From NCBI GenBank assembly GCA_964492615.1, contig CAZBKZ010000006.1, positions 18,712-82,711 of the forward strand: a stretch of 64,000 bases of DNA, given 5' to 3'. Both the position numbers and the translations under genes were made by a program. A model generated the notes under the pieces. It was not told where the DNA came from. It made no database searches and saw only the letters and a program-made list of their open reading frames with translations. This DNA comes from an uncultured Syntrophomonadaceae bacterium (GTDB lineage: Bacteria > Bacillota > Dethiobacteria > DTU022). Positions 27,821 through 44,842 of this stretch are shown piece after piece (position 1 is the first letter of the stretch; each line of letters opens with the position of its first letter).

Positions 27821-27852
27821 AAAAAGCAAAACCCCGTTTAAACCCGGGGCCT
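27821..27852 (-). terminator. Terminator at the end of the kinase island
   Basis: On the minus strand, GGCCCCGGG-TTTAAA-CGGGG is followed by TTTTGCTTTTT. Confidence 0.5.
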
Positions 27853-27936: not shown

Positions 27937-30045
27937 CTAAAAACCGCTTTCCAACAAGTTACGTCCACTGCCATCCAGGCGAACCTTATAGATGTTATCC
28001 TGTTCGGCCTGATCCATGTAAAGTATCCAGTCACCGATTACGTTTATGTAGCGAACCGCTTCGGATACCAGTTTAACTCTTCCTGTACCGTCTGTTTTTA
28101 CTTTATTCAGCGAGAATTCGTCCTCTTCGTCGGCATAGTAGATCCAACCATCAGCAACATTGATAAACCAGGCTGGCTGTTCAATTACTTTTTCATTTTC
28201 AGAGCCATCAGTCTTCATTCTATAAATACTTGATCCGTCATCCTCATTAATATAATAAACCCAGCCATCAGCCACATTTATACTGGATGAAGCGTTATCA
28301 TTAATTTTTTCTTTCTGGCCGGCATCAGAACTAACCCGGTAAATTTTATTTCCATCATCACGGTTAGCATAGTAGATCCAGTCTTCTTCTATATATAGAG
28401 ACCATGCGGTATCTTCACTAAGCCTTGTCTTCCCCTCTCCGCTGCTGCTGATTCTGTAAAGACGATAATCATCGCTTTCATCAAGATAATAGAGCCAACC
28501 GTCTGCCAGCGTTGTGAACCAGGCTCCGTTGTCTGTAAGTGACTCCCTGTTTCCGCCATTCCGGTCAACTCTGTATATTCTATTATTATCATCACGGTTG
28601 CTGTAATAAATATAATCTCCGGATACATTAATAAACCAGGCAGAATCCACACTGATTGCCCTTGTTTCACCCGAACCGGAAGTTCCCACCTGCAGACTTC
28701 CCCCCTGGTTACTGCGGAAGAAAATTTGATCGCCCTGGAGAGCAGCCAGACCACCATTACTAATATTCCCTCCGCTGTTCCCAAAATAATTGGCTTCTGT
28801 TTGTACACTACCCTCGTTAACAGCAGCATCAATTTCGTTTTCTACTTCCGGCCCTGCTCCAACGGATTGATCTGTAGTAACATCCGCATCACTTCCACCT
28901 AAAACTCCACTGGCCCAAAGTCCATACCCCCCGGCGCCAATTACCAGGGCGGCAACCACACCGATAATCAGGCTCAAAGGGATTGCTTTCTTTTCAGTTT
29001 CAGTTTTTACAGCAGCACCAGCTGCCTGATTTATAGCAGCAGGAGTCGGGGCAGTTACACCACCCGTGCATTTACCCATCAACACATCCTGAAAGTCCTG
29101 GATACTTTGAAAACGGTCTTCAGCACGGACAGCAAGAGCTTTTAATAAAGCTTTTTCTTCGTCATCGTTAAGCGCAGCACCCAGTTTCGATGGCGGTTCC
29201 AAGGGATCTTCGACAAGCCGTTCCAGCGCCTCGGGCGGTTGTTTACCGGTTACCAGGTGGTAATAAGTAGCTGCGATAGCGTAAATGTCGGTCCAAGGCC
29301 CCTGCACTCCCTTACTTCGATATTGTTCTTCAGGGGCATAACCGGGTTTGAGAATTATCGACAAGCTTCGCCCTTTTTCACCAATTGCCTGGCGGGCAGC
29401 GCCAAAATCGATCAAGATCACCTGACCTTTTTTGTTGATAAAAATATTATCCGGGCTTATATCGCGGTGTAGGATATTTACCGAATGGACCTCCTTCAGG
29501 GCATCCATAACAGGCATTAAAATGCCCCGGGCCTGGTCAACCGGCAACACTCCACCGGCATTCGCCAAATGCTCTTTAACAGTAATTCCTTCTACATAGC
29601 TCATTACAAAATAAGCAGTTCCGTTAGCTTTGAAGAAATCGCGAACTGAAACGATATTGGGATGCCCTTCAAACTGGGCCAGGGTCCGTGCTTCCTGGAG
29701 GAACTTATCCAGGCCGTATTCATACTGGCTACCCATACTTCCACTGTATGCCGACACCTGGCTATGCCCGGCAGCCCTTGAGGCAAGATCCTGGGGAAAG
29801 TATTCCTTAATCGCCAGTTTAACATTCAGATTGAGATCCCAGGCCAGATAAGTTATGCCAAAACCGCCCTGCCCGAGCACCCGACCAACAAGGTACTTAT
29901 TCTCAAGAACTGTGCGCGGTGGCAAGTATAAAGGTGATTCAGGCGCTGTTCCTTCAACAAAGCCGCAGTTTGAACATTTAGCTTCATCACCCGGTTTTTC
30001 TGTCATACAACCCATGCATAATCTATCAATATCCAAAGGAATCAC
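27937..30045 (-). CDS. Ser/Thr protein kinase: N-terminal zinc ribbon, kinase domain, TM, and extracellular DUF5050-like beta-propeller repeats
   Basis: CMGCMTEKPGDEAKCSNCGF zinc ribbon; GQGGFGITY, LAIKE, HRDISPDNIF, DFGAAR and APEE kinase motifs; a TM helix; and six ~40-aa WIYY..N..DG..IYR...DGS repeats. Confidence 0.8.
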   Translation of the reverse strand: MIPLDIDRLCMGCMTEKPGDEAKCSNCGFVEGTAPESPLYLPPRTVLENKYLVGRVLGQGGFGITYLAWDLNLNVKLAIKEYFPQDLASRAAGHSQVSAYSGSMGSQYEYGLDKFLQEARTLAQFEGHPNIVSVRDFFKANGTAYFVMSYVEGITVKEHLANAGGVLPVDQARGILMPVMDALKEVHSVNILHRDISPDNIFINKKGQVILIDFGAARQAIGEKGRSLSIILKPGYAPEEQYRSKGVQGPWTDIYAIAATYYHLVTGKQPPEALERLVEDPLEPPSKLGAALNDDEEKALLKALAVRAEDRFQSIQDFQDVLMGKCTGGVTAPTPAAINQAAGAAVKTETEKKAIPLSLIIGVVAALVIGAGGYGLWASGVLGGSDADVTTDQSVGAGPEVENEIDAAVNEGSVQTEANYFGNSGGNISNGGLAALQGDQIFFRSNQGGSLQVGTSGSGETRAISVDSAWFINVSGDYIYYSNRDDNNRIYRVDRNGGNRESLTDNGAWFTTLADGWLYYLDESDDYRLYRISSSGEGKTRLSEDTAWSLYIEEDWIYYANRDDGNKIYRVSSDAGQKEKINDNASSSINVADGWVYYINEDDGSSIYRMKTDGSENEKVIEQPAWFINVADGWIYYADEEDEFSLNKVKTDGTGRVKLVSEAVRYINVIGDWILYMDQAEQDNIYKVRLDGSGRNLLESGF

Positions 30046-30092: not shown

Positions 30093-30821
30093 CTAAGAAA
30101 CAATTAATGCAAGTGCAGAATAATTATCGTGACCTTCCTCTGCTTTACTGATAACCTTTCCTTCCATAATCTCAAGCCACTTTTGAGTCGTTCTGCTTTG
30201 AGCCAGGCTATCTTCCATCTCTGATTCTATAACATATTCCCAAAACCCGTCACTGCATAAAAGAAAACGGTCCCCCTCCTCTAACCGCACCGGCTTATCT
30301 GAATAGCGAATTTTGTTGAAATTACTGCTGTCAAAAGAGGCTGTCAACCTGTTACGATCTTCATGAAAGCGAATCTCATCTGCTGTTATACTACCGCTGT
30401 CGGCCAGATGCTGCGGGACACTGTGATCCCTGGTCTGAAAAGCAAGCCTGCCCGACCTAAACAGGTATAGCCTGGAGTCACCAACATGAGCCCAACAGGC
30501 CTTGTCCTCGCCGGTTAACAAGACGACCAGGGTTGTTTTTAAAGACGACTCCTTTCTTTCTGCACTTCTTAGTTGTTCAAGGGCCAAGGCGGCATTTCGC
30601 ATATATTCCTGTAACTTTTCAGTTGAAAAACCGGGGGACGCATTGAACGAAGATATTATACTTTTAGCTACAGCTTTTGAAGCAATATCACCACCGCGAT
30701 GACCACCCAGCCCATCAGCCATGATATAGCAACCGAACTCGTCAAGAATGTTGTAGTCGGTATAATCTTCATTAACCTTACGTCCACCGGGGTTAGAAAG
30801 CATGGAAACATCAATTTTCAT
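30093..30821 (-). CDS. PP2C-family Ser/Thr phosphatase
   Basis: ADGLGGHRGGDIASK and DGFWE metal-binding motifs. Confidence 0.8.
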   Translation of the reverse strand: MKIDVSMLSNPGGRKVNEDYTDYNILDEFGCYIMADGLGGHRGGDIASKAVAKSIISSFNASPGFSTEKLQEYMRNAALALEQLRSAERKESSLKTTLVVLLTGEDKACWAHVGDSRLYLFRSGRLAFQTRDHSVPQHLADSGSITADEIRFHEDRNRLTASFDSSNFNKIRYSDKPVRLEEGDRFLLCSDGFWEYVIESEMEDSLAQSRTTQKWLEIMEGKVISKAEEGHDNYSALALIVS

Positions 30822-30892: not shown

Positions 30893-31720
30893 TTAAGCTG
30901 TCCTGCGCTGCTTTATAAACAATACGAGCAGCACAACAATAATGAGAACAATGACACCCAACCCCAGGAAAATATAGTTATCATAATCAGTTGGGCTATC
31001 AACTGGTTGTTCTTCTGCCGCAACTTCATCAACCTCAGGCTGTTCAACCTCTTCAGTCATACCTTCATCATCATTGGCAGCAGAGATCAGCTGGTCAACA
31101 CTTTCATCTGCCTCGCTCTCTTCAACAGTAACATTACTGAAAGTAAAAATCTGATCATTATCTTCAGCTCTGGCTATAATCCGTGCTTCTCCACTCCTGT
31201 AAGCTGTAGCAAGGCCATTTTGATCAACTGTTATTACCCCATTATCACTGGACTGCCAAATTAAATCTGAGACAGTAGCATACTGAGGTTCGACCGTTGC
31301 CTCATACTGCACCTCTTCACCAGGGGCCAGGACAACTTCAAGAGGTTCCAGGAATATCTTGCTGATCGGCACAACAACTTCAACCCTGCAATAATTCTGG
31401 AACTGACCATCTTCAGTAGTTGCATAAATATTAGTTGTACCCGGACTCAAAGCCTCTATTACAACTGTCGACCCACTTCTTTCAATTATTTGGACCTTAT
31501 TTTTATCACCTGAATACCAGCTAACTTTTTTATTGCTTGCACTTGCAGGTATTACCCATGCAGATAATTCTTCAGTCGTAAAAATTTTCATGACTAGTTC
31601 TGTGGTTTCCATATATATGCCTGTAACTGGAACCTCATCTTCAGCATAAGCAACCGTGCCTATGACAATAATAACTATAATTATAAAAAACGATATTTTT
31701 ATTAGTCTTCCAGCATACAT
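30893..31720 (-). CDS. Bitopic membrane protein with two Ig-like (Big_2-type) domains and an acidic tract
   Basis: TM helices at both the N- and C-terminus. Two ~80-aa domains, VSWYSGDKNKVQII...TNIYATT and LIWQSSDNGVITVD...ARIIARA. Confidence 0.5.
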   Translation of the reverse strand: MYAGRLIKISFFIIIVIIVIGTVAYAEDEVPVTGIYMETTELVMKIFTTEELSAWVIPASASNKKVSWYSGDKNKVQIIERSGSTVVIEALSPGTTNIYATTEDGQFQNYCRVEVVVPISKIFLEPLEVVLAPGEEVQYEATVEPQYATVSDLIWQSSDNGVITVDQNGLATAYRSGEARIIARAEDNDQIFTFSNVTVEESEADESVDQLISAANDDEGMTEEVEQPEVDEVAAEEQPVDSPTDYDNYIFLGLGVIVLIIVVLLVLFIKQRRTA

Positions 31721-31737: not shown

Positions 31738-33660
31738 TTACCGACCTATAAAGTTGTTATTCTCCCAAATCCCAATTCTTTTTGTCCCATCCGGGTAAGT
31801 CATTACTCCCTCACCATGCATCTGCCCATCCAGCCACTGTCCATCATATTTACGTTCTCCACGCTGCACAAGCCCGGCTGAGGTCTGCTCGACTTCATAA
31901 ATCAAGCTTCCTTCACCGTGAGGCAAACCGTTTTTTAACTGTCCGGTATAAGTTCCTCCCAGGTAAGCAATAGTACCGGTTTCAATCAATTCATCATTTA
32001 AGGACCCGGCAGAAGCTGAATGATTATCTTCTTCCCTAACTGCTTCCCCATGGCTACCAATTGATATAAGGGCAACCGGTTCTTTCTGGCCTTGGTTGTT
32101 AATCAGCATTACAGCAATAACCACAATAACCAACATTGCTGAAGCAATAGCCAGCAAAAGCTTATTACCACGCCGGCTTGTTTTAGATAATACTCCAACG
32201 TTACTGCTGACCGCACCGGCAGCACTATCTTCAGTTGAAAACAACATATTACCATTTTTTGCATAAAATTTGGTTCCATCAAAAAATATTTCAGTATGAC
32301 TGAATTTTAAATGAGAATTAGCAAGCAATCTCATATCACTCTCAACCCTGGTATCGTTCATAAAAGTACCGTGGGTACTGTTTAAATCAGCAACATACCA
32401 CTCACCTGAATAGTAATAAATGCGGGCATGATAACGGGATACGGTACTGTCGTTTAAAACAAGTACATTACCGGGATCCCTTCCAACTGTTATTTCATTG
32501 CCCGTATGGCTGACAGGACGCGGAATAAGCGATTCGACGTGGTACAAATTGTTCGGCTCGCAGTTTTCATGACTAAACCCGTTTTCTAATCCAGTGCTGC
32601 CAACAGTTTGCTGCGAATCTTCTGCAACTGTTCGGTCCTGGTATAAATCTCCCTGGCCGGTCGTTATGCGACCACCCTGCTCATTAAGAGCATCCCACAA
32701 TGCCTTTTGAAAGTCAGCTACAGCCTTGAAACGATTTTCTGCTTTTACAGCAAGGGCAGTCATTAAGGTCTCCTCTGCAGCGGGGCTGTATGAAAATCCT
32801 AAAGCAGTAGGCCTGACCAAGGGATCATCGCTTAAACGATCAAGTGAATCAGGGATCATTCTACCGGTAGTTATCCTGTAAAATGTAGCTGCAGCAGCAT
32901 AAATATCTGTCCAGGGGCCCTGCTTGCCCCTGCTCCGATACTGTTCTTCAGGAGCATAGCCAGGTTTTAATATGATTGACATGTTTTTTGCTTTTTCGCC
33001 CATTGCGTGGCGCGCAGCACCAAAGTCAAGCAGTATTACCCTGCCTTCAGTGGTAATGAATATATTATCCGGACTTACATCCCTGTGCAGTAAACCTTCT
33101 TCATGTATGGCATTCAGAGCATCAAGCACAGGCATCATCACTTGAACTGCTTCTTCGAATGAAAGCTGCTCCCCCCTCTGGGCGAGATAATCGTAAAGAT
33201 TAATACCTTCAAGGTAAGGCATAACCAGGTAGGCAGTATTATTGCTTTTAAAAAAATCCCTAACTGTAACTATATTGGGATGCCCCTCAAAGAGGGCAAG
33301 GGTTTTAGCTTCAGCAAGAAATTTTTCTAACCCATAATTATACTGTTCAGCCATCTCATAGGAATATAAAAATACCTCGCTGTTTTCAGCCATTCTACAG
33401 GCAAGCTCCCTGGGGAAAAACTCCTTCACAGCCAGCATACGATCCAAATAAATATCCCAGGCCAGGTAAGTAATTCCAAAACCGCCCTGGCCGAGAACTC
33501 TGCCCAGTAAATATTTTTCATTAATTACTGACCGAGGCGGTAGATGCATAGCTGATTCAGGCCGGGCACCCTCAACCCAACCACACAGAGGACATTCTGT
33601 TTTATTTCCCTTAATACCCATACAGCCCATACACAGATGATTCAAGTCCATCTTTAACAC
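31738..33660 (-). CDS. Ser/Thr protein kinase: N-terminal zinc ribbon, kinase domain, TM, FHA domain and C-terminal MORN repeats
   Basis: CMGCMGIKGNKTECPLCGW zinc ribbon, HRDVSPDNIF and DFGAAR kinase motifs, FHA ITVGRDPGNVLVLNDSTVSRYHARI...STHGTFMN, and MORN YDGQWLDGQMHGEGVMTYPDGT. Confidence 0.8.
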   Translation of the reverse strand: MLKMDLNHLCMGCMGIKGNKTECPLCGWVEGARPESAMHLPPRSVINEKYLLGRVLGQGGFGITYLAWDIYLDRMLAVKEFFPRELACRMAENSEVFLYSYEMAEQYNYGLEKFLAEAKTLALFEGHPNIVTVRDFFKSNNTAYLVMPYLEGINLYDYLAQRGEQLSFEEAVQVMMPVLDALNAIHEEGLLHRDVSPDNIFITTEGRVILLDFGAARHAMGEKAKNMSIILKPGYAPEEQYRSRGKQGPWTDIYAAAATFYRITTGRMIPDSLDRLSDDPLVRPTALGFSYSPAAEETLMTALAVKAENRFKAVADFQKALWDALNEQGGRITTGQGDLYQDRTVAEDSQQTVGSTGLENGFSHENCEPNNLYHVESLIPRPVSHTGNEITVGRDPGNVLVLNDSTVSRYHARIYYYSGEWYVADLNSTHGTFMNDTRVESDMRLLANSHLKFSHTEIFFDGTKFYAKNGNMLFSTEDSAAGAVSSNVGVLSKTSRRGNKLLLAIASAMLVIVVIAVMLINNQGQKEPVALISIGSHGEAVREEDNHSASAGSLNDELIETGTIAYLGGTYTGQLKNGLPHGEGSLIYEVEQTSAGLVQRGERKYDGQWLDGQMHGEGVMTYPDGTKRIGIWENNNFIGR

Positions 33661-33686: not shown

Positions 33687-34238
33687 CTACTCTTTTTCTT
33701 CGTCCTTTTTCCATTCGAATTGTTCACCACAAAATGGTATAAACACAAGTTGTGACTGTCCGATTTCAATTACATCATAGGGTGAAAGAGTCACCGGAGT
33801 GATAACCTCTTCATCATTTAAATATACAAGCCCCCTGCCTTCCCCTGGATAAAGGCGGTAGGTTTTATTCTTGGGACTGAAACTAACAATGGCGTGATTA
33901 TCCCTTGATATGGAATCATCACCAGGAATACTGACATCCATTTTGTCTGATCTGCCAATAAAGTTTTTTTCTGCAGTAATGCGGTAATCTTTTCCTTTTT
34001 CAGGGCCTTGAACGGCTACCAGCCAGCCAACTACCGGATCAATACCAAGCTTCTTTTTAAAAACCCCAACCGTTTTACCATCATTGGAAGCACCGGGTTC
34101 CCCGCTGCCAGGTCTTTTAGCCATTGTTTTTTTAATCGATATATCCAGGTTTTGGACTCCACAAAAGGGGCAACTGCTGTGTTTGCTTGAATCATAATAG
34201 TGTCCCTTTTCGCATCTTGTTAAAGAATCCATCTCCAC
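33687..34238 (-). CDS. Zinc-ribbon plus FHA-domain protein
   Basis: RCEKGHYYDSSKHSSCPFCG zinc ribbon and FHA FIGRSD...SRDNHAIV...NDEEV. Confidence 0.7.
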   Translation of the reverse strand: MEMDSLTRCEKGHYYDSSKHSSCPFCGVQNLDISIKKTMAKRPGSGEPGASNDGKTVGVFKKKLGIDPVVGWLVAVQGPEKGKDYRITAEKNFIGRSDKMDVSIPGDDSISRDNHAIVSFSPKNKTYRLYPGEGRGLVYLNDEEVITPVTLSPYDVIEIGQSQLVFIPFCGEQFEWKKDEEKE

Positions 34239-34365: not shown

Positions 34366-35880
34366 TTATTCTAAGGTAAGCTCAAATAGCTCTTTTGAAT
34401 CGGAAATATAGAAACGATCACCCGTATTCAAATAGTGGGTCTTACCTGTCTCCAGTCTTTGATTGGAAGGCAGAAAGGTGCCATTTGAAGATGAATCTTC
34501 AAGGCTGAACCTTTGAGCATTTTCATCATAAGAAATAGTAACATGTTTCCTGCTAACTTCTTCAAAAGACTGTGGATAAACAAGTTGAGCAAGCTTGGGG
34601 TCACGTCCTATAATCAGTTGCCCCTGGATTAGTTCAATTTTCTGCCCGGCAAAGTGACCTGAAATACCCTTCACACTGGCCCTGGGCCCAACTGGCTTCG
34701 CTTTTGTTACCGGGGCGGCTGCAGTTTTTACGCTGGCCTGGGTTACCGGAGAAGTTGATGCCCGTTGGGTAGGGGGAGCCTGCATGGGAGGTGACCCAAC
34801 TGAAGCCCTGGCAGGTGCCGGCTTATTGCCCCTGCTTAAAAGTATTATTAACACTATAACAATAATTAAAGCTGCTGCACCTATGGCAACATACATGATC
34901 GGAAAACCGCTTTCTTCAACCGGCGGGGTGGTTGTTTCTACTACCGGTTCGGGCTGTGGCTCGGGCTCAGTAATCGGTTCGGGTTCAGGTACCGGAGGTT
35001 CTTCAGCTGTTTGATCTACTACAGGGGCACCCGCTCCTGCTTCGATATAGGGGATTCCTCTTGAACGTAGAAAATCTGTCAAGACGTCTATCTGCACGGC
35101 GTAGTTAATTTCTGAAGGAATCACCGCATCGCCGGTTATTCTCACTATGCCACCCGAGGCTATACCGATAACAACTCCATCCCTGTTAACCAATGGTCCA
35201 CCAGAATTTCCACCACTGATCGCTGTATCAGTTTGAAAAACCGGGACTCCTTCCGAAGAAGTTATTCTGCTGACAATCCCTTTCGTAATAGTTGAATCCG
35301 AGTAATGCGCCGTATTCAAATCTGACAACACTTCAGCAATCCCGGGGTAACCAATAGCATAAACCTCTTCACCGCGCTGTACCATTCCGGTATGACCGAA
35401 CTCAAGCACTTCATAACCAAACAAGCGGTGCCTGGGGTCTATTTCAAGGACTGATATATCGGAGGTCATCAACGAATCGTATACCGCAATCGGAACATAG
35501 TCATCCCTGGCCCTGACAAGATACAGGCCTATTTCTTCAACATTTCTTACCCGGAAAGGGTTCGGCCAGTCAAGGGCGCGATTCCGGTTTATAACATGAA
35601 AATTTGTTACAACATATCGGAATTCCGCTGTATCATCAACACCAACTAAAAAACCGCTGCCCATGTGAACATAAAGATCGCTTTCATCGAAATCACCTGT
35701 GATGGGGTCCCTTAAGGCATCCCTCCAGGCCTCGGTATTCGGCAATTTCCAGGCTATCATCACTACACTCTTGGACGCTCTGTCTACTGCTTCCTGGGCA
35801 AAGGCGGGGCTGCAAACACTAATAATCATTAAGATTGCAATTGCTAAAAGTATTAACGAACGCGTTAAGGTTATTCTCAT
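34366..35880 (-). CDS. Trypsin-like serine protease fused through a TM helix and Pro-rich linker to a C-terminal FHA domain
   Basis: Signal peptide; S1 triad context TNFHVI...GNSGGPLV; TM helix IMYVAIGAAALIIVIVLIILL; PEPEP linker; and FHA LIIGRDPKLAQLVYP..VSRKHVTISYD...SNGTFL. Confidence 0.7.
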   Translation of the reverse strand: MRITLTRSLILLAIAILMIISVCSPAFAQEAVDRASKSVVMIAWKLPNTEAWRDALRDPITGDFDESDLYVHMGSGFLVGVDDTAEFRYVVTNFHVINRNRALDWPNPFRVRNVEEIGLYLVRARDDYVPIAVYDSLMTSDISVLEIDPRHRLFGYEVLEFGHTGMVQRGEEVYAIGYPGIAEVLSDLNTAHYSDSTITKGIVSRITSSEGVPVFQTDTAISGGNSGGPLVNRDGVVIGIASGGIVRITGDAVIPSEINYAVQIDVLTDFLRSRGIPYIEAGAGAPVVDQTAEEPPVPEPEPITEPEPQPEPVVETTTPPVEESGFPIMYVAIGAAALIIVIVLIILLSRGNKPAPARASVGSPPMQAPPTQRASTSPVTQASVKTAAAPVTKAKPVGPRASVKGISGHFAGQKIELIQGQLIIGRDPKLAQLVYPQSFEEVSRKHVTISYDENAQRFSLEDSSSNGTFLPSNQRLETGKTHYLNTGDRFYISDSKELFELTLE

Positions 35881-36039: not shown

Positions 36040-36987
36040 TCATCCCGACAATATTGACAGCACCACTACTGTCACGTTATCCTGATGTGGATTATTTTTA
36101 GTTAAAACCTCTTTAACCATCTCTTCAGCTACGTTATTAAAACTATTGCGAAGAACAGTAATAATTTCATTTTCAGTCAGTGTATTAGTCAGTCCATCAC
36201 TGCAGAGTAATATTTTGTCACCGTTCAGCAAATCAAGAGGCTCTTCCTCCTGACATATTTCTTTTAAATCGGCCAGACCCAAATAACTGGTCAGATAATC
36301 CCTCTCGGGATGCTCAAGCGCTTCCTGCGCTGTCAACCTGCCATTGGTAACATCATCTTCGAGATAATTGGCATATATATGATCCCTGGTTAACTGCTTT
36401 AAACTGTTATTCCGATAGAGATATATTCTGCTGTCGCCAGCGGATATCCAATGTAGGTGATTGCCGATAATAACTGCTGCAACTATAGTGGTGCCGAGAT
36501 CGTGTTCTTCAAATTGGCCATACGCCAAATCAAATACAGCAGTATTGGCTATTAGCATAGCACGCTTCATGGTCTGGGCTATTGTTTCTGAGACTTTTCT
36601 ATTTTCATATGTTTTCATAAATGCAGCCGAGGCAACAGTGCTAGCTTCCTCTCCGAGTTCAAGCCCACCCATACCGTCGGCAACGAGAGCGAGAATGCCG
36701 TTGTCCTCTACAAACTTGTCATTGCTGAAATCAGATATAGCAAAAGCATCTTCCTGGTTTTCCCTGGCGCCAACATGTTGAAAGTTAGATGGGATCACCT
36801 GGAGCGCACGACTAACCCGGGCTGCTACTGTTTTTTTCCTTTTTGTCGGTTTTGTTTCTTCTGATTGGGCGATATAAGTATCTTGCTTCTTTTTCTTCCC
36901 AAAAAACATATTTACTATCGCCACCTGACCATATGGTTTCCTCTTGTGCCTGATTCTTATATTAGCTTCTCTTCGCCCTGCATGCAT
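36040..36987 (-). CDS. PP2C-family Ser/Thr phosphatase (second copy)
   Basis: ALVADGMGGLELGEEAS and CSDGLTN motifs. The basic N-terminal extension may be over-called; an alternative start is MFFGKKKK near 36909. Confidence 0.75.
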   Translation of the reverse strand: MHAGRREANIRIRHKRKPYGQVAIVNMFFGKKKKQDTYIAQSEETKPTKRKKTVAARVSRALQVIPSNFQHVGARENQEDAFAISDFSNDKFVEDNGILALVADGMGGLELGEEASTVASAAFMKTYENRKVSETIAQTMKRAMLIANTAVFDLAYGQFEEHDLGTTIVAAVIIGNHLHWISAGDSRIYLYRNNSLKQLTRDHIYANYLEDDVTNGRLTAQEALEHPERDYLTSYLGLADLKEICQEEEPLDLLNGDKILLCSDGLTNTLTENEIITVLRNSFNNVAEEMVKEVLTKNNPHQDNVTVVVLSILSG

Positions 36988-37096
36988 CTGGCAATTGTTT
37001 TTATTATTTCTACATCATTTTATTAATTCCTTTTATTTACTCTTAAGAGGCAGAAAATATCGACTGGCTTATCATAACTTTTTTTGGGCCAAACTA

Positions 37097-37125
37097 TTGA
37101 CACTAACTGTAAAAACGTATATACT
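37097..37125 (+). promoter_or_regulatory. Consensus sigma-A promoter for glnA
   Basis: TTGACA at 37097-37102, exact 17-nt spacer, TATACT at 37120-37125. Confidence 0.55.
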
Positions 37126-37131
37126 TTTTTT

Positions 37132-37190
37132 GGGCAAAGGCGCCCGTCATTCAGTCATATGACTGCAGGCGGGCGTTTTTATTTTTATTT
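37132..37190 (+). promoter_or_regulatory. glnA leader attenuator: terminator hairpin with a competing upstream hexaloop hairpin (candidate ANTAR target)
   Basis: GGGC-AAAGGC-GCCC is a hexaloop hairpin with A at position 1 and G at position 4, overlapping the 5' arm of the CGCCCG...CGGGCG terminator stem. An inner palindrome CAGTCATATGACTG lies between them and TTTTTATTTTT follows. Confidence 0.5.
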
Positions 37191-37212
37191 AATACAAAAG
37201 GAGCTGTTGTTA

Positions 37213-38541
37213 ATGGGTAAAACAAAAGATGACGTTCTCGCCATGGCAAAAGAATCAGGAGTGAAGTTTATCCGCCTGCAGTTTACCGATCTTTCAGGGC
37301 AATTAAAGAATGTGGCGATAACCTCGGACCAACTGCCAAAAGCACTCGATAACGAGCTGATGTTTGACGGATCGTCAATTGAAGGGTTTGTAAGAATTGA
37401 AGAGTCAGACATGTATCTCAGGCCGGACTTTGATACCTTTACTGTCTTCCCCTGGAGCCCCAGTGAAAATGGTGTAGCCAGGCTAATGTGCGATGTTTAT
37501 ACGCCCGAGGGCGAGCCATTTGCCGGCTGCCCCCGCAGCCAGCTTAAAAAAATGATCGCTTTAGCCGCTGAAAAAGGCTATACGATGAACTGCGGTCCTG
37601 AAGCAGAGTTTTTTATGTTCCATACCGATGAAAGCGGCGCACCCACCTTGGAAACACACGATAAGGGAGGATATTTTGACCTTGCCCCGACCGACCGTGG
37701 CGAAAGCGCCCGCCGCGATATGGTCCTGGGCCTGGAGCAGATGGGACTGGAAATTGAAGCATCTCATCATGAAGTGGCCCCCGGACAGCATGAAATAGAT
37801 TTTAAATACGGCGATGCCCTGCATACAGCAGATGATCTTTCCACATTCCGCTTTGTAATCCGCACAATCGCCCAGAGACACGGTCTCTATGCTACATTTA
37901 TGCCGAAGCCGATCGCCATGATTAACGGTTCCGGTATGCACACCCATCTCTCACTTTTTAAAGATGGCAAGAACATTTTCAACGATCCCGGAGCTCCGGA
38001 CGAAATCAGCCAGGAAATGCTCTGGTTTATCGGCGGCCTGCTTAAACATGCCAAAGGTTTTACTGCCGTTACAAACCCGCTTGTTAACTCATATAAACGC
38101 CTGGTGCCCGGTTATGAAGCACCAGTTTATATCGCCTGGTCATACCGTAACCGCAGCCCGCTAATCAGGATACCTGCCCGCAGGGGCATCGGTACCAGGT
38201 GTGAGTTACGCAGCCCCGATCCTTCCTGCAACCCATACCTTTCTTTCGCCGTTATGCTCCGTGCCGGCCTTGACGGTATTGAAAACAAAATTGATCCGCC
38301 TGATCCGGTTAACCTGAATATCTATACCATGAGCGATGAAGAAAAAGAACAGCACAACATTGAAAGCTTACCGGGTACCCTATATGATGCAATAATAGAA
38401 CTCGATAAAGACAAGGTTATACAGGAAGCTCTTGGAAAACATATTTACGATCGCTTCCGCGAAGGCAGAATGAAGGAATGGCTTGATTACCGGATCCAGG
38501 TGCACGATTGGGAAGTTAAACAATATCTGGCAAGGTTCTAG
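37213..38541 (+). CDS. glnA: Glutamine synthetase type I
   Basis: MGKTKDDVLAMAKESGVKFIRLQFTDLSG. The true ATG at 37213 is preceded by AAAGGAG. The track ORF is extended upstream across the promoter and leader. Confidence 0.85.
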   Translation: MGKTKDDVLAMAKESGVKFIRLQFTDLSGQLKNVAITSDQLPKALDNELMFDGSSIEGFVRIEESDMYLRPDFDTFTVFPWSPSENGVARLMCDVYTPEGEPFAGCPRSQLKKMIALAAEKGYTMNCGPEAEFFMFHTDESGAPTLETHDKGGYFDLAPTDRGESARRDMVLGLEQMGLEIEASHHEVAPGQHEIDFKYGDALHTADDLSTFRFVIRTIAQRHGLYATFMPKPIAMINGSGMHTHLSLFKDGKNIFNDPGAPDEISQEMLWFIGGLLKHAKGFTAVTNPLVNSYKRLVPGYEAPVYIAWSYRNRSPLIRIPARRGIGTRCELRSPDPSCNPYLSFAVMLRAGLDGIENKIDPPDPVNLNIYTMSDEEKEQHNIESLPGTLYDAIIELDKDKVIQEALGKHIYDRFREGRMKEWLDYRIQVHDWEVKQYLARF

Positions 38542-38667: not shown

Positions 38668-39300
38668 TTGAAAATAACCATAGTATATAAAAAGAATCAA
38701 CGCTGCAAGGAGAACCGTATGCTAAATAATAACTGTGATTACTGCATCGGCACTAACAACGCGGCATTTAAACAGTTCATCTCAACCGTTCTTAATCAGG
38801 CCGGCTACTACTCGGCTGGTAACGCAAAAAACATACCCTCATTGCTACGCCTGTTACGTTCAGTACAGCCCTGGCTTGTCGTGGTTGACACTGAGCTGCC
38901 GCCAGGAAATATCAGCGAACTTGCCGACATCATTGAAAACGACGCCCTCGCTGCAGCTATCTATATTAACACCGGAACTACAAAAATCGATGGTTATGTT
39001 TCCCTTGATTACCCTGTAAAACAGCAGGTTCTAATTGCTGTTGCTAATGCTGTATGCAGCGAATATGCCCGCAAAAAAAGGATGCATTCAAAGATTGCAT
39101 CCCTTCAGCAAAAAATTGATGAACAGAAAATTATCGACAGGGCTAAACGCCTGTTGATCAAAAAATATTCACTTAGTGAAGAAGAGGCTTTTCGCCTTAT
39201 TCAGAAAAACAGTATGGACTGCCGCATCTCCATGGCCGAAACAGCCACCAGGGTAATCAGCAACCCCGGGACTTTTGCCTCTTTATTGCCGCCCCGATAA
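38668..39300 (+). CDS. ANTAR-domain RNA-binding antitermination regulator (NitR/GlnR-of-Clostridium type) with an N-terminal receiver-like domain
   Basis: C-terminal ANTAR consensus [43 protein letters not shown]. Confidence 0.7.
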
Positions 39301-41524: not shown

Positions 41525-44500
41525 ATGAATTTAAGTCAAAATGCCCTTATTACCTACGAAAAACGTTACCTGATCAAGGATGAAAAAGGCAATCCCGTGG
41601 AAACGCCGGAAGACCTGCTGCGCCGGGTATCCGCCAACATTGCTTCAATAGATAAAAACTACGGCAGTGACGAGCAGGCTGTAAAGGACCGGGAAGATAG
41701 CTTTTATAATATGTTAGCTCAAGCATTTTTCATGCCTAATTCCCCGACTCTGATGAATGCCGGACGTGAACTTCAGCAGTTGAGTGCCTGCTTTGTCCTG
41801 CCACTTGAAGACAGCATGGAAGGAATATTTACTGCTCTGAAGAATATGGCTTTGGTCCAGAAAACCGGTGGTGGTACAGGCTTTGCATTTGATCGTCTCC
41901 GTCCCAGTAATGACCTGGTTAAATCAACAAACGGCGTGGCCAGCGGCCCCCTCTCTTTTTTAAAAATATTTGATGCAGCTACAGAAGCAGTTAAGCAGGG
42001 TGGAACAAGACGGGGAGCAAATATGGGCTCCTTGAGATATAATCACCCCAATATTATCGATTTTATTGTCTGTAAAGAAAATGAAGATGAGATCACCAAC
42101 TTTAACCTTTCTGTCACTGTCTCCGATGAATTCATGCGCAAAGCAATTGGCGAAGATCCCGAATATATGTATAGCCTGATTAACCCACGGACAAATCAGG
42201 AATACTGCGACCCTGAAACGGGAGAACCGATCAGGCTTGATGCCAGGGAGGTTTTCGATCTAATCGTCCAGAAAGCATGGGCTAAAGGCGATCCGGGTAT
42301 CATCTTCATTGACCAGATGAATCGTTACAACCCCACTCCGCAGGTTGGGCATTATGAAACTACCAATCCTTGCGTATCGGGAGACACCTTTGTCACTACT
42401 TCTGAAGGGCCAAGACAGGTAAAAGAGCTGATTGGCAGGAAAGCCAACCTGATCATAAATGGCAAGGAGTATGCAACTACAGAAGAAGGCTTTTTCTCAA
42501 CCGGCATTAAACCGCTTTTTTCAATTGTCACTAAAGAGGGTTATCGTCTAACAGCTACCGCCGACCATCCTGTGCTCAGGGTTAAAAGGAAAACCAGGTA
42601 CAAACTGGAAAGTGAATGGGCTAATACATCCAACCTTAAGCCAGGCGACGAAATCATTTTAAATGATCATCGTGAATTTAAAGGTTGGCCGGGTCTTTAT
42701 GGAGAAAAGGAAGGCTATTTAATGGGCCTGTTAATCGGCGATGGCACCTTAAAGCAAGACAAAGCCCTGCTTTCCGCCTGGCCCGATCAGTCCGAAGATG
42801 GCATTGTATGCGCTGCTGAAGAGGCAGCCTTCAGCTTGCCCCACCGCAGTGATTTTGAAGGCTTTTGGAAGGTATCCGGGCGAAACGAATATAGAATGAG
42901 CCTTGCTGCAATCAAGGAAATTGCTTTGGCTTTAGGCATGACCCCCGGAAACAAAGCCATTACTCCTTACCTGGAAACACATACTTCGTCAAATTTTTAC
43001 AAGGGCATGCTTAAAGGTTTCTTTGATGCAGACGGATCACTGCAGGGCAACCAGCATAAAGGCATCTCAATTCGCCTGGCTCAGAGTAACCTGGAAAGAC
43101 TTGAAGCTGTGCAAAGAATGCTGGCCCGTTTCGGGATCGTCTCCAGAATATACAAGAACAGGCGTAATAAACAGCTAACCAAATTGCCTGACAATAACCA
43201 GGGCAGCGCCTTTTATGAAACTAAGCCGCAGCATGAGCTTATAATAACCAGGGATAATTTGGCAGTTTATGCCGAAAAGATCGGTTTCAGCGACAGATCG
43301 AAAGCTGATAAATTGAAAAACGCCCTTGCTACATACTGCCGCAGTCTTAACCGGGAACGCTTTTTAGCCACCATTGATTCGGTAAATTCTGCAGGACAGG
43401 AGACTGTATATGATGTTCAGGTTCCCGGTATTAATGCCTTCGATGCTAACGGATTAGTGGTGCATAACTGCGGAGAACAGCCCCTTTTACCTTACGAAGC
43501 CTGCTGCCTGGGATCTATTAACCTGGGCAAAATGGTTACTGCCGACGGTAAAATCGACTGGGACAACATGAAAAAAACCATCAGGACAGCTGTCCGTTTC
43601 CTGGATAATGTGATAGACGCCAGTAATTACGTAATTCCTGAAATAGCCAAGATGCACAGGGAAGGCAACCGCAAAATCGGTCTTGGCATTATGGGCTGGC
43701 ACGACATGCTGGTCAGGCTGGGTATTCGCTATGACAGCGAAAAAGCAATTAAAACAGCTGAAGAAGTTATGAAATTTATTAATCAAGAAGCAAAGGAAGA
43801 ATCCGTTCTTCTTGCCGGAGAAAGAGGCACTTTCCCCAATTTTGAGAAAAGCATTTACGACAACGGCAAAAAAGAAGACCGGGTTCGTAATGCCACCCGC
43901 ACCACCATAGCTCCTACCGGAACAATATCAATCCTGGCCGGGGCCAGCAGCGGTATCGAACCATATTTCAGCATCGCCTTTACCAGAAAAAATATTCTAG
44001 GCGGTCTGGAACTACCCGAAGTTAATCCTGTATTTCTTGAAATTGCCCGTGAAGAAGGTTTTTACAGCGAAGAGCTGATTCTTGAAATCGCCCGTAGTGG
44101 TAAAATACCGGCTAATGCGGAAATCCCACAAAAATATAAGGATTTATTTAAAACAGCAATGGAAATTGATTTCAAATGGCACGTTCGACACCAGGCTGCC
44201 TTCCAGAAATATACCGATAATGCCGTCAGCAAAACAATAAACCTTGAACAGGATGCAACTGCCGATGACGTTAAGAATGCCTATATCCTGGCCTGGCAAT
44301 CCGGGTGTAAAGGCATTACCATATACCGTGACAGCTCACGCACCAAACAGGTTTTAAATGTGGGTGATGGAGAAAAAGACGATACAATTAAACCAACCAA
44401 ACGGCCTAAAACTCTAAGTGGCCATACCACAAGTATCCGCACAGCCCTGGGCAACCTCTTTGTTACTGTAAATACATCGGATGGAAAACCGTTTGAAATC

Positions 44501-44842
44501 TTTGCCCAGATTGGTAAAGCCGGGAGCGATGTTGTTGCCTTTACTGAAGCTATTGCGCGTTTAATTTCTCTCGCCCTGCGCTGCGGAGTAAGCGTAGATG
44601 AAATAGTCACCCAGCTAGAGGGCATCGGTGGTGCGCGCTCAGTGGGGTTTGGGCCAAACAGGATTATGAGTGTACCCGATGCTATCGGGCAGACTCTCCG
44701 CAAGCTGGCCGCTGCCGATACCGATGCAGAACAGGTCAATGGCAATCACCAGTTGGAAATTTGCCCCGATTGCGGCACCTGCGCCCTGATCAGGGCTGAG
44801 GGATGTTTAAAATGTGAAGCCTGTGGGTTTAGCGAATGCTAA
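41525..44842 (+). CDS. nrdJ: Class II (adenosylcobalamin-dependent) ribonucleotide reductase NrdJ, intein-containing
   Basis: Class II RNR motifs, including active-site NPCGE split by the intein, and a C-terminal Cys-rich zinc finger. Confidence 0.85.
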   Translation: MNLSQNALITYEKRYLIKDEKGNPVETPEDLLRRVSANIASIDKNYGSDEQAVKDREDSFYNMLAQAFFMPNSPTLMNAGRELQQLSACFVLPLEDSMEGIFTALKNMALVQKTGGGTGFAFDRLRPSNDLVKSTNGVASGPLSFLKIFDAATEAVKQGGTRRGANMGSLRYNHPNIIDFIVCKENEDEITNFNLSVTVSDEFMRKAIGEDPEYMYSLINPRTNQEYCDPETGEPIRLDAREVFDLIVQKAWAKGDPGIIFIDQMNRYNPTPQVGHYETTNPCVSGDTFVTTSEGPRQVKELIGRKANLIINGKEYATTEEGFFSTGIKPLFSIVTKEGYRLTATADHPVLRVKRKTRYKLESEWANTSNLKPGDEIILNDHREFKGWPGLYGEKEGYLMGLLIGDGTLKQDKALLSAWPDQSEDGIVCAAEEAAFSLPHRSDFEGFWKVSGRNEYRMSLAAIKEIALALGMTPGNKAITPYLETHTSSNFYKGMLKGFFDADGSLQGNQHKGISIRLAQSNLERLEAVQRMLARFGIVSRIYKNRRNKQLTKLPDNNQGSAFYETKPQHELIITRDNLAVYAEKIGFSDRSKADKLKNALATYCRSLNRERFLATIDSVNSAGQETVYDVQVPGINAFDANGLVVHNCGEQPLLPYEACCLGSINLGKMVTADGKIDWDNMKKTIRTAVRFLDNVIDASNYVIPEIAKMHREGNRKIGLGIMGWHDMLVRLGIRYDSEKAIKTAEEVMKFINQEAKEESVLLAGERGTFPNFEKSIYDNGKKEDRVRNATRTTIAPTGTISILAGASSGIEPYFSIAFTRKNILGGLELPEVNPVFLEIAREEGFYSEELILEIARSGKIPANAEIPQKYKDLFKTAMEIDFKWHVRHQAAFQKYTDNAVSKTINLEQDATADDVKNAYILAWQSGCKGITIYRDSSRTKQVLNVGDGEKDDTIKPTKRPKTLSGHTTSIRTALGNLFVTVNTSDGKPFEIFAQIGKAGSDVVAFTEAIARLISLALRCGVSVDEIVTQLEGIGGARSVGFGPNRIMSVPDAIGQTLRKLAAADTDAEQVNGNHQLEICPDCGTCALIRAEGCLKCEACGFSEC
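42371..43468 (+). mobile_element. Intein (366 aa) with a LAGLIDADG homing endonuclease, inserted at the NrdJ active-site Cys
   Basis: The N-extein ends ...TTNP and the intein begins CVSGDTFV (block A). Dodecapeptide motifs LMGLLIGDGTL and LKGFFDADGSL are present, and the intein ends VVHN followed by extein CGEQ. Confidence 0.75.

Follow-up and report, generated by a model that had tools for sequence, protein, structure and literature searches.

The window analysed here, a stretch of 64,000 nucleotides from contig CAZBKZ010000006.1 of an uncultured Syntrophomonadaceae bacterium, encodes at positions 34366..35880 of the minus strand a 504-residue protein in which a signal peptide, an HtrA-like protease, a Pro/Glu spacer, a transmembrane (TM) helix, a basic linker and an FHA domain follow one another in that order. 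The protein is predicted to be anchored in the cytoplasmic membrane with the protease outside and the FHA domain inside, and its gene lies in a conserved operon with genes encoding Hanks-type kinases and PP2C phosphatases. The reading developed below, to which about an even chance is given, makes the protein the FHA component that brings an enzyme into a Hanks kinase/PP2C signalling complex, with docking to phosphothreonine (pThr) controlling the protease on the outside. What is new is a membrane-anchored HtrA-like protease with an FHA domain in place of a PDZ domain, for which neither a curated family model nor a paper was found. The parts of the protein were assigned as follows.

34366..35880, minus strand: whole protease-FHA open reading frame (ORF), 504 residues (Pfam, hydropathy, identical public protein P0001).
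35797..35880, minus strand: signal peptide, residues 1-28 (hydropathy; cleavage predicted).
35041..35772, minus strand: HtrA-like (S1C-like) extracytoplasmic protease domain of the chymotrypsin fold, residues 37-280 (Pfam, PDB matches, AlphaFold2, Foldseek).
35596-35598, 35458-35460 and 35203-35205, minus strand: catalytic codons of the protease domain for H95, D141 and S226, respectively.
34906..35031, minus strand: acidic Pro/Glu-rich outer spacer, residues 284-325 (PEPEPITEPEPQPEP...) (sequence, low model confidence).
34837..34905, minus strand: TM helix, residues 326-348 (hydropathy, AlphaFold2).
34681..34836, minus strand: basic disordered cytoplasmic juxtamembrane linker, residues 349-400 (composition, model confidence).
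34369..34680, minus strand: cytoplasmic FHA domain, residues 401-504 (Pfam, AlphaFold2).

The ORF is real, beginning with ATG 9 nt downstream of the sequence GGAGG. The identical protein (P0001) is present in public data (ncbi/jgi/ena) on 24 metagenome contigs with the JGI name 'S1-C subfamily serine protease' and, given this protein and its homologues, the presence of both domains in one ORF is far beyond chance. An earlier note, made from the nucleotide sequence alone, had described a protease joined through a TM helix to an FHA domain, and each of the motifs that it quoted (TNFHVI, GNSGGPLV, GRD, SRKH and NGTF) is present within a domain recognized by Pfam. The note had also placed a PEPEP-rich linker between the TM helix and the FHA domain. 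The parts exist, although not in that order, since the PEPEP stretch (approximately residues 284-325) precedes the helix and is predicted to lie outside. Structure prediction, proposed in the note as a check, returned a folded protease, a TM helix and an all-beta FHA domain. The AlphaFold2 model, built on 35 homologues, had a mean predicted local distance difference test score (pLDDT) of 82, with a confident protease at approximately residues 37-280, a TM helix at 328-349, disorder at 351-396 and the confident all-beta domain at 401-504. The outer spacer was modeled with low pLDDT and without secondary structure.

The Pfam model Trypsin_2 matched residues 74-240 with an E value of 1.1e-23 (85 bits against a cut-off of 27.6), and the domain contains the motifs TNFHVI (H95) and GNSGGPLV (S226). 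Comparison with PDB sequences matched the protease part with the protease domains of HtrA3, HtrA1, DegQ, MucD and DegS, and aligned H95, D141 and S226 on the catalytic residues of HtrA3 and HtrA1, showing an intact triad. The modeled domain, with pLDDT above 90, recovered only HtrA-family protease domains (MucD, HtrA1, DegQ and DegS) from the PDB with Foldseek at E values of 1e-13 to 1e-12. No PDZ domain was detected in a Pfam scan of the 504 residues, the region after the protease consisting of the spacer, TM helix, linker and FHA domain. The scores with the NCBIfam models for HtrA, DegP and DegS were also well below the cut-offs (TIGR02037, 65.6 against 416 bits; TIGR02038, 37.1 against 423; NF047968, 33 against 470), as was that with the MarP model NF033740 (30.7 against 250 bits), the protein having one N-terminal hydrophobic segment and not four TM helices. 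Since no NCBIfam model attains its cut-off for this protein, or for any other of the seven proteins encoded in the operon, the protease-FHA protein is without a curated name. The catalytic triad is conserved in approximately 110 of 120 homologues, and it is intact in approximately 92% of members including the window protein. Catalytic residues are lost in approximately 7 of the 120 (approximately 6%; P0042, P0049, P0053, P0059, P0061, P0065 and P0070), in which His, Asp and Ser are replaced, as in TTDDIV / SGIVV / GMEGGP. In these pseudoproteases the fold and the TM helix are retained, the FHA domain is intact and the position in the operon is unchanged, at loci that include L016 and L018.

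The location of the two domains relative to the membrane was evaluated from hydropathy, charge and a natural gene fusion. Two hydrophobic segments are present, one at residues 1-29 and one at 326-348, the latter with Kyte-Doolittle values up to 3.2. The first has the features of a signal peptide: two Arg residues in the n-region (RxxxxR), a hydrophobic core of 15 residues and a predicted signal peptidase I site, AFA|QE. A lipoprotein N-terminus was ruled out by eye, since the sequence ISVC with Val at position -1 is not a lipobox. A hydrophobic stretch is found at the N-terminus of 111 of 118 homologues, and a counterpart of the helix at residues 326-348 in essentially all homologues. In the window protein the helix is preceded by acidic sequence (EESG) and followed by the basic sequence SRGNKPAPAR. 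The same bias is followed by 112 of the 118 homologues, with a mean of 3.5 Lys and Arg in the 15 residues after the helix against 0.59 in the 15 before it, where the mean for Asp and Glu is 2.3. Furthermore, the metagenomic protein P0156 (701 residues) is a natural fusion of the upstream phosphatase gene with the protease-FHA gene, with the order PP2C, TM, protease, TM, FHA. Since the PP2C domain preceding the first hydrophobic segment must be cytoplasmic, P0156 fits only a protease outside and an FHA domain inside. FHA function depends on ATP-dependent phosphorylation and the domain must therefore be cytoplasmic. Overall, a single-pass type I membrane protein with the protease outside and the FHA domain inside, the arrangement proposed in the earlier note, is well supported by these predictions. 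That both domains lie on the same side, or that the hydrophobic segments do not span the membrane, is extremely improbable against two strong hydrophobic segments, the consistent charge bias, the fusion and the requirement for ATP, although AlphaFold2 models the N-terminal segment as one long helix.

The C-terminal region is FHA, as the earlier note had stated: Pfam FHA matched residues 423-492 with an E value of 3.9e-11 and 43.6 bits against a gathering cut-off of 20.7. The motifs GRD (425-427), SRKH (443-446) and NGTF (466-469) contain all of the canonical pThr-binding residues, G425-R426, S443-x-x-H446 and N466-G467-T468. Among 120 homologues these are conserved at G425 in 119, R426 in 117, S443 in 117, H446 in 119, N466 in 91, G467 in 119 and T468 in 118. 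AlphaFold2 modeled residues 401-504 as a confident all-beta sandwich, with pLDDT of 89-97 over residues 401-500. Compared alone with PDB sequences, the domain gave only weak matches, to Mek1 and CHFR (E values of 0.003-0.01), and so has no close solved relative. It nevertheless passes the sequence tests for FHA and is a predicted phosphothreonine reader.

The architecture is shared by a large family. A profile was searched against 1.84 billion representatives of clusters formed at 50% identity; the best 150 were all full length with E values of 1e-98 or below, and a further 4,955 hits had values of 1e-30 or below. Both Pfam domains are present in 119 of the 120 best homologues, and in nearly all of them a signal peptide, protease, TM helix and FHA domain are arranged alike. 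A TM helix follows the protease in all 137 new representatives examined and the GxSGG serine motif is kept in 132, so that the search for the same architecture elsewhere, also proposed in the earlier note, found it throughout. In some representatives (P0130, P0131, P0141, P0142 and others) the TM helix is followed by two FHA domains. The nearest genome, with 89% identity, is a metagenome-assembled genome (MAG) of an uncultured Syntrophomonadaceae bacterium, and the named carriers include Ca. Contubernalis alkaliaceticus, Tindallia magadiensis, Bacillus taeanensis, B. fengqiuensis, Clostridium fungisolvens and Acidobacteria MAGs. No paper describing a protease-TM-FHA fusion was found in full-text searches of the literature. 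The only published combination of trypsin and FHA domains found in one bacterial polypeptide is NP_811686.1 of Bacteroides thetaiotaomicron, tabulated as a singleton in a 2008 survey; unlike the window protein it has the reverse order, FHA-FHA-Tryp, and the survey gave no topology, context or function (PMC2605481). The statement of the earlier note that the family is not a characterized one therefore agrees with the literature and NCBIfam, yet the architecture is common and annotated in databases at the level of domains. As far as the searches show, the protease-FHA family is large, widely distributed and, according to the literature found, functionally uncharacterized.

The gene stands second in a row of seven genes read in the same direction, which include those for two kinases and two PP2C phosphatases; three of the proteins bear FHA domains, namely protease-FHA, Zn-ribbon-FHA and the FHA-containing kinase. 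The remaining features of the unit, from upstream to downstream, are as follows.

36040..36987, minus strand: PP2C_a phosphatase, upstream of protease-FHA (Pfam; NCBIfam Stp1-like match below cut-off).
33687..34238, minus strand: small cytoplasmic protein with a Zn-ribbon and an FHA domain (Pfam FHA; Cys/His motif C9, H13, C23, C26).
31738..33660, minus strand: receptor Hanks kinase with Zn-ribbon, kinase and FHA domains, TM helix at 498-523 and extracellular MORN repeats (Pfam).
30893..31720, minus strand: surface protein in which two Big_2 domains and an acidic spacer precede a C-terminal TM helix (Pfam).
30093..30821, minus strand: second PP2C phosphatase, PP2C_b (Pfam).
27937..30045, minus strand: second receptor Hanks kinase with Zn-ribbon and kinase domains, TM helix at 352-378 and an extracellular DUF5050 beta-propeller (Pfam; DUF5050 E value 1e-63).
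27829..27852, minus strand: terminator-like hairpin and T-run closing the seven-gene unit (8 pairs, 5 of them G-C; consensus match only).

Other gene callers start PP2C_a at Met27, giving 289 residues. Both kinases contain all of the kinase signature motifs. With the seven proteins as queries, tblastn identified comparable gene sets at 17 Syntrophomonadaceae loci, most often in the order PP2C, protease-FHA, PP2C, Zn-FHA, kinase, Big_2(-FHA) and kinase. PP2C_a is directly upstream of the protease-FHA gene in 15 of the 17, the remaining two being a truncated contig and a locus with two tandem PP2C genes, and it has the same position in Tindallia, Bacillus and an Acidobacteria-like contig. The Zn-ribbon-FHA protein is co-conserved with 57-94% identity. 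The distant carriers, among them Tindallia, B. taeanensis with a PASTA kinase and a metagenome lineage with three kinases, keep the core of PP2C and small FHA genes, and all but one have at least one kinase; on the Acidobacteria-like contig, which has the core, no kinase domain was recorded within 8 kb. A gene for a vWA-FHA protein is added to the neighbourhood in two lineages. The conserved neighbourhood, combined with the gene fusion in P0156, strongly supports a functional link to Ser/Thr phosphosignalling, and the protease-FHA protein is taken to be a dedicated component of a Hanks-kinase/PP2C/FHA phosphosignalling operon. The association with kinases suggested in the earlier note is thus stronger than first seen, while the regulated proteolysis that it also suggested is something we infer.

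The gene order in the window, and in the locus L005 with 89% identity, differs from that of most relatives (L006-L021). The PP2C_b gene, which in the relatives directly follows the protease-FHA gene, has moved in the window to a position after the Big_2 gene. The Big_2 protein of the window ends 6 residues past its C-terminal TM helix, without an FHA tail. The orthologue in Tindallia (L026, 12514-14043) has the layout Big_2-TM-FHA with an FHA domain paralogous to that of the protease, and FHA-like tblastn matches follow the Big_2 match in many Syntrophomonadaceae loci. The comparison suggests that the lineage of the window lost one FHA tail, that on the Big_2 protein. The pseudoproteases together with the Big_2-TM-FHA paralogues suggest that an ectodomain, a TM helix and an FHA domain may be a recurring design in such operons. 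Both receptor kinases start with a zinc-ribbon-like CxxC...CxxC sequence (CMGCM...C..CG).

The linker between the TM helix and the FHA domain was examined as a potential site of phosphorylation. Residues 349-400 contain eight Lys and Arg and neither Asp nor Glu, are rich in Ala, Pro and Thr, and were modeled with pLDDT below 50. The segment is poorly conserved apart from short repeats of the form [VPAIL]-T-[QRKM]-[APT]-[KRGS]. The window protein has two exact copies, PVT380QAS and PVT392KAK, and PPT371QRA resembles the motif without matching it exactly. This motif is found in the linkers of 63 of 66 close relatives, among which the conserved Thr motif can be summarized as VT[QK]A[KS], and T392 is invariant in the alignment of closer relatives (A2). 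In the 66 closest relatives the mean was 1.65 copies per linker against 0.08 in composition-matched shuffles of the linkers, a 20-fold difference, and there was no occurrence elsewhere in the same proteins. The linker motif was likewise absent from the other six proteins of the operon. The repeated Thr motif is a likely candidate for a phospho-acceptor or FHA-ligand site, which would be phosphorylated within the cytoplasm.

In the mechanism proposed, the receptor kinases of the operon would phosphorylate Thr residues, most plausibly T371, T380 and T392 of the protease's own linker and, alternatively or in addition, sites on the juxtamembrane regions of the kinases. The FHA domain would bind these pThr sites in trans, and the protease-FHA protein would dock or oligomerize beside the kinases, which would determine how the extracellular protease domain is assembled or positioned. 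HtrA-type proteases are active as oligomers and are normally gated by a PDZ domain, which the protease-FHA protein lacks. The protease would cleave extracytoplasmic targets, for which the Big_2 surface protein, the kinase ectodomains and wall or secreted proteins are candidates, and the two PP2C phosphatases would reset the system. The most specific version is control from the inside to the outside, in which Thr phosphorylation by the Hanks kinases, read by the FHA domain, would oligomerize the PDZ-less protease and switch on cleavage at the surface or wall; it is put forward tentatively, as possible.

Several results weigh against control of the protease by pThr docking. Of 120 distant representatives only 4 have the linker Thr motif, which is thus specific to a clade and not family-wide. 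The pseudoproteases keep the FHA domain and the operon slot, and therefore proteolysis is not essential for every member. The activation loops of both kinases, DFGAARHAMGEKAKNMSIILKPGYAPEE and DFGAARQAIGEKGRSLSIILKPGYAPEE, are without Thr, and the usual docking site for FHA is absent. FHA domains recognize no phosphorylated residue other than pThr, so docking must take place at another site, and the linker or the juxtamembrane regions of the kinases are therefore the likely ligands.

In the main rival reading, signalling would run from the outside to the inside and the protein would be a co-receptor. The ectodomain would act mainly as a sensor that binds, and perhaps cleaves, unfolded or wall-derived peptides, and ligand-driven oligomerization would gather the FHA domains. 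These would serve the kinases and the small FHA proteins as a scaffold or activate them, and the result would be phosphorylation and not proteolysis. The reading is favoured by the pseudoproteases, which persist with fold, helix, FHA domain and operon position. It is also consistent with the conservation of the two halves: in tblastn comparisons at the loci other than the near-identical L005, the FHA half was 46-65% identical against 31-57% for the protease half, and the FHA half was the more conserved in all loci but one. Furthermore, the ectodomains of the partner kinases vary (MORN, DUF5050, PASTA and LRR) and the protease-FHA protein is constant, as expected for a shared accessory sensor, and peptide sensing by an HtrA protease is already exemplified by DegS. 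However, the intact triad in the great majority of members argues that catalysis is selected for, neither a PDZ domain nor another known ligand-sensing module was found with Pfam or AlphaFold2, and the kinases already have sensor domains of their own. This rival is considered rather doubtful, and lower probabilities still are given to localized quality control, a defence system and a wrong topology.

A housekeeping role is unlikely, in which the protease would be a constitutively active quality-control enzyme that the FHA domain only localizes near kinase complexes, for example at sites of wall growth. The protease domain is nearest the quality-control proteases HtrA, DegQ and MucD, the kinase partner in B. 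taeanensis is of the PASTA type, which is associated with growth of the cell wall, and the operon is chromosomal, between glnA and guaA. These properties are offset by the tight and exclusive embedding between two PP2C genes in distant carriers and by the conserved Thr motif adjoining the FHA domain, and the pseudoprotease variants are hard to reconcile with a bulk role.

A role in an anti-phage or other conflict system, with the protease as an effector set off by a kinase/phosphatase switch, was considered on the basis of PADLOC matches of the kinases to PD-T4-6 and mad6 and of the protease to RT-Protease and LmuA, and of reports that mention FHA, trypsin and S/T kinase domains, separately, as effectors in conflict systems (PMC7159879, PMC8195603). 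The matches cover only the generic kinase or trypsin domain, with no specific full-length match, and a search of 72,556 plasmids and 50,697 phages yielded no full-length copy of the protein. The effector domain would also face outward and not the cytoplasm, and the G+C content does not differ from that of the flanks, which consist of housekeeping genes. A defence system was rejected as highly improbable on the generic matches and the lack of plasmid or phage copies, and a mobile role in defence is unlikely.

The flanking genes are glnA, divergent and upstream (37084-38541, plus strand), and guaA downstream. The glnA gene is followed by a gene for an ANTAR-domain regulator (38668-39300, plus strand), which is a plus-strand ORF of 210 residues in the list for the window and is called on the opposite strand, with a different start, in public data. 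Positions 41525-44842 of the plus strand encode a ribonucleotide reductase large subunit of 1105 residues, for which Pfam matches on identical public contigs indicate an intein with a LAGLIDADG homing endonuclease.

Comparison with known systems places each part of the protein near a precedent. With HtrA, DegP, DegQ and DegS (MEROPS S1C), which are the best sequence and fold matches, it shares the chymotrypsin fold and the His-Asp-Ser triad, and with DegS, a membrane-anchored stress sensor with a signalling role, an extracytoplasmic protease domain tethered to the cytoplasmic membrane. It differs from the HtrA family in the absence of PDZ, an anchor that is C-terminal and not N-terminal to the protease, and the cytoplasmic FHA domain. 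MarP (Rv3671c) of M. tuberculosis, which has a specific signalling or cell-wall role, is likewise a PDZ-less trypsin-like protease at the outer face of the membrane, but it has four N-terminal TM helices and no FHA domain. FhaB/FipA (Rv0019c) of the same species, a small membrane-anchored FHA protein encoded in the pknA/pknB-pstP cluster, has a TM helix, a linker and a cytoplasmic FHA domain beside PP2C and Hanks kinases, as here, but is without an extracellular enzyme; its model NF049868 gave a weak match to residues 373-478 (26.3 bits against a cut-off of 125).

The linker resembles that of Rv1747, an ABC exporter of M. tuberculosis, and of Chk2/Rad53, where a disordered Thr/TQ-rich segment lies directly beside the FHA domain, as do the VT[QK]A motifs in the window protein. 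In those proteins the phosphorylated TQ-rich segment drives FHA-mediated self-association that controls activity. Their outputs are a transporter and a kinase, whereas the controlled module of the window protein would lie across the membrane, and phosphorylation of its linker is only predicted. The PpkA-PppA-Fha1 system of Pseudomonas type VI secretion also has a Hanks kinase, a PP2C phosphatase and an FHA protein encoded together, with FHA-pThr binding that switches a membrane machine, and a weak match to a TagH-type FHA model was obtained with NCBIfam. Unlike that system, the operon in the window has no secretion-system genes, and its FHA domain and effector enzyme form one polypeptide. The domain plan of the small Zn-ribbon and FHA protein (33687-34238) is that of archaeal ArnA of Sulfolobus, the structure of which (5a8i) is a weak match of the FHA domain of the protease-FHA protein (E value 0.22), and the vWA-FHA proteins in some bacterial versions of the operon recall ArnB.

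Hanks-type kinases are abundant in bacteria but, to our knowledge, only a few of their direct outputs have been described apart from the phosphorylation of proteins in the cytoplasm. The FHA proteins encoded in operons with these kinases are mostly adaptors without an attached enzyme. The protease-FHA family, found in hundreds of lineages, joins a predicted pThr reader physically to an enzyme that would act outside the cell, and the operon context provides a specific and testable prediction for its function. If the coupling is true, it would provide a direct path by which phosphorylation inside the cell remodels its surface, or a path in the opposite direction. If control runs from the inside to the outside, the family would represent an undescribed class of output for bacterial Ser/Thr kinase signalling in Bacillota and Acidobacteria, functionally reminiscent of the phospho-regulated ectodomain sheddases of animals.

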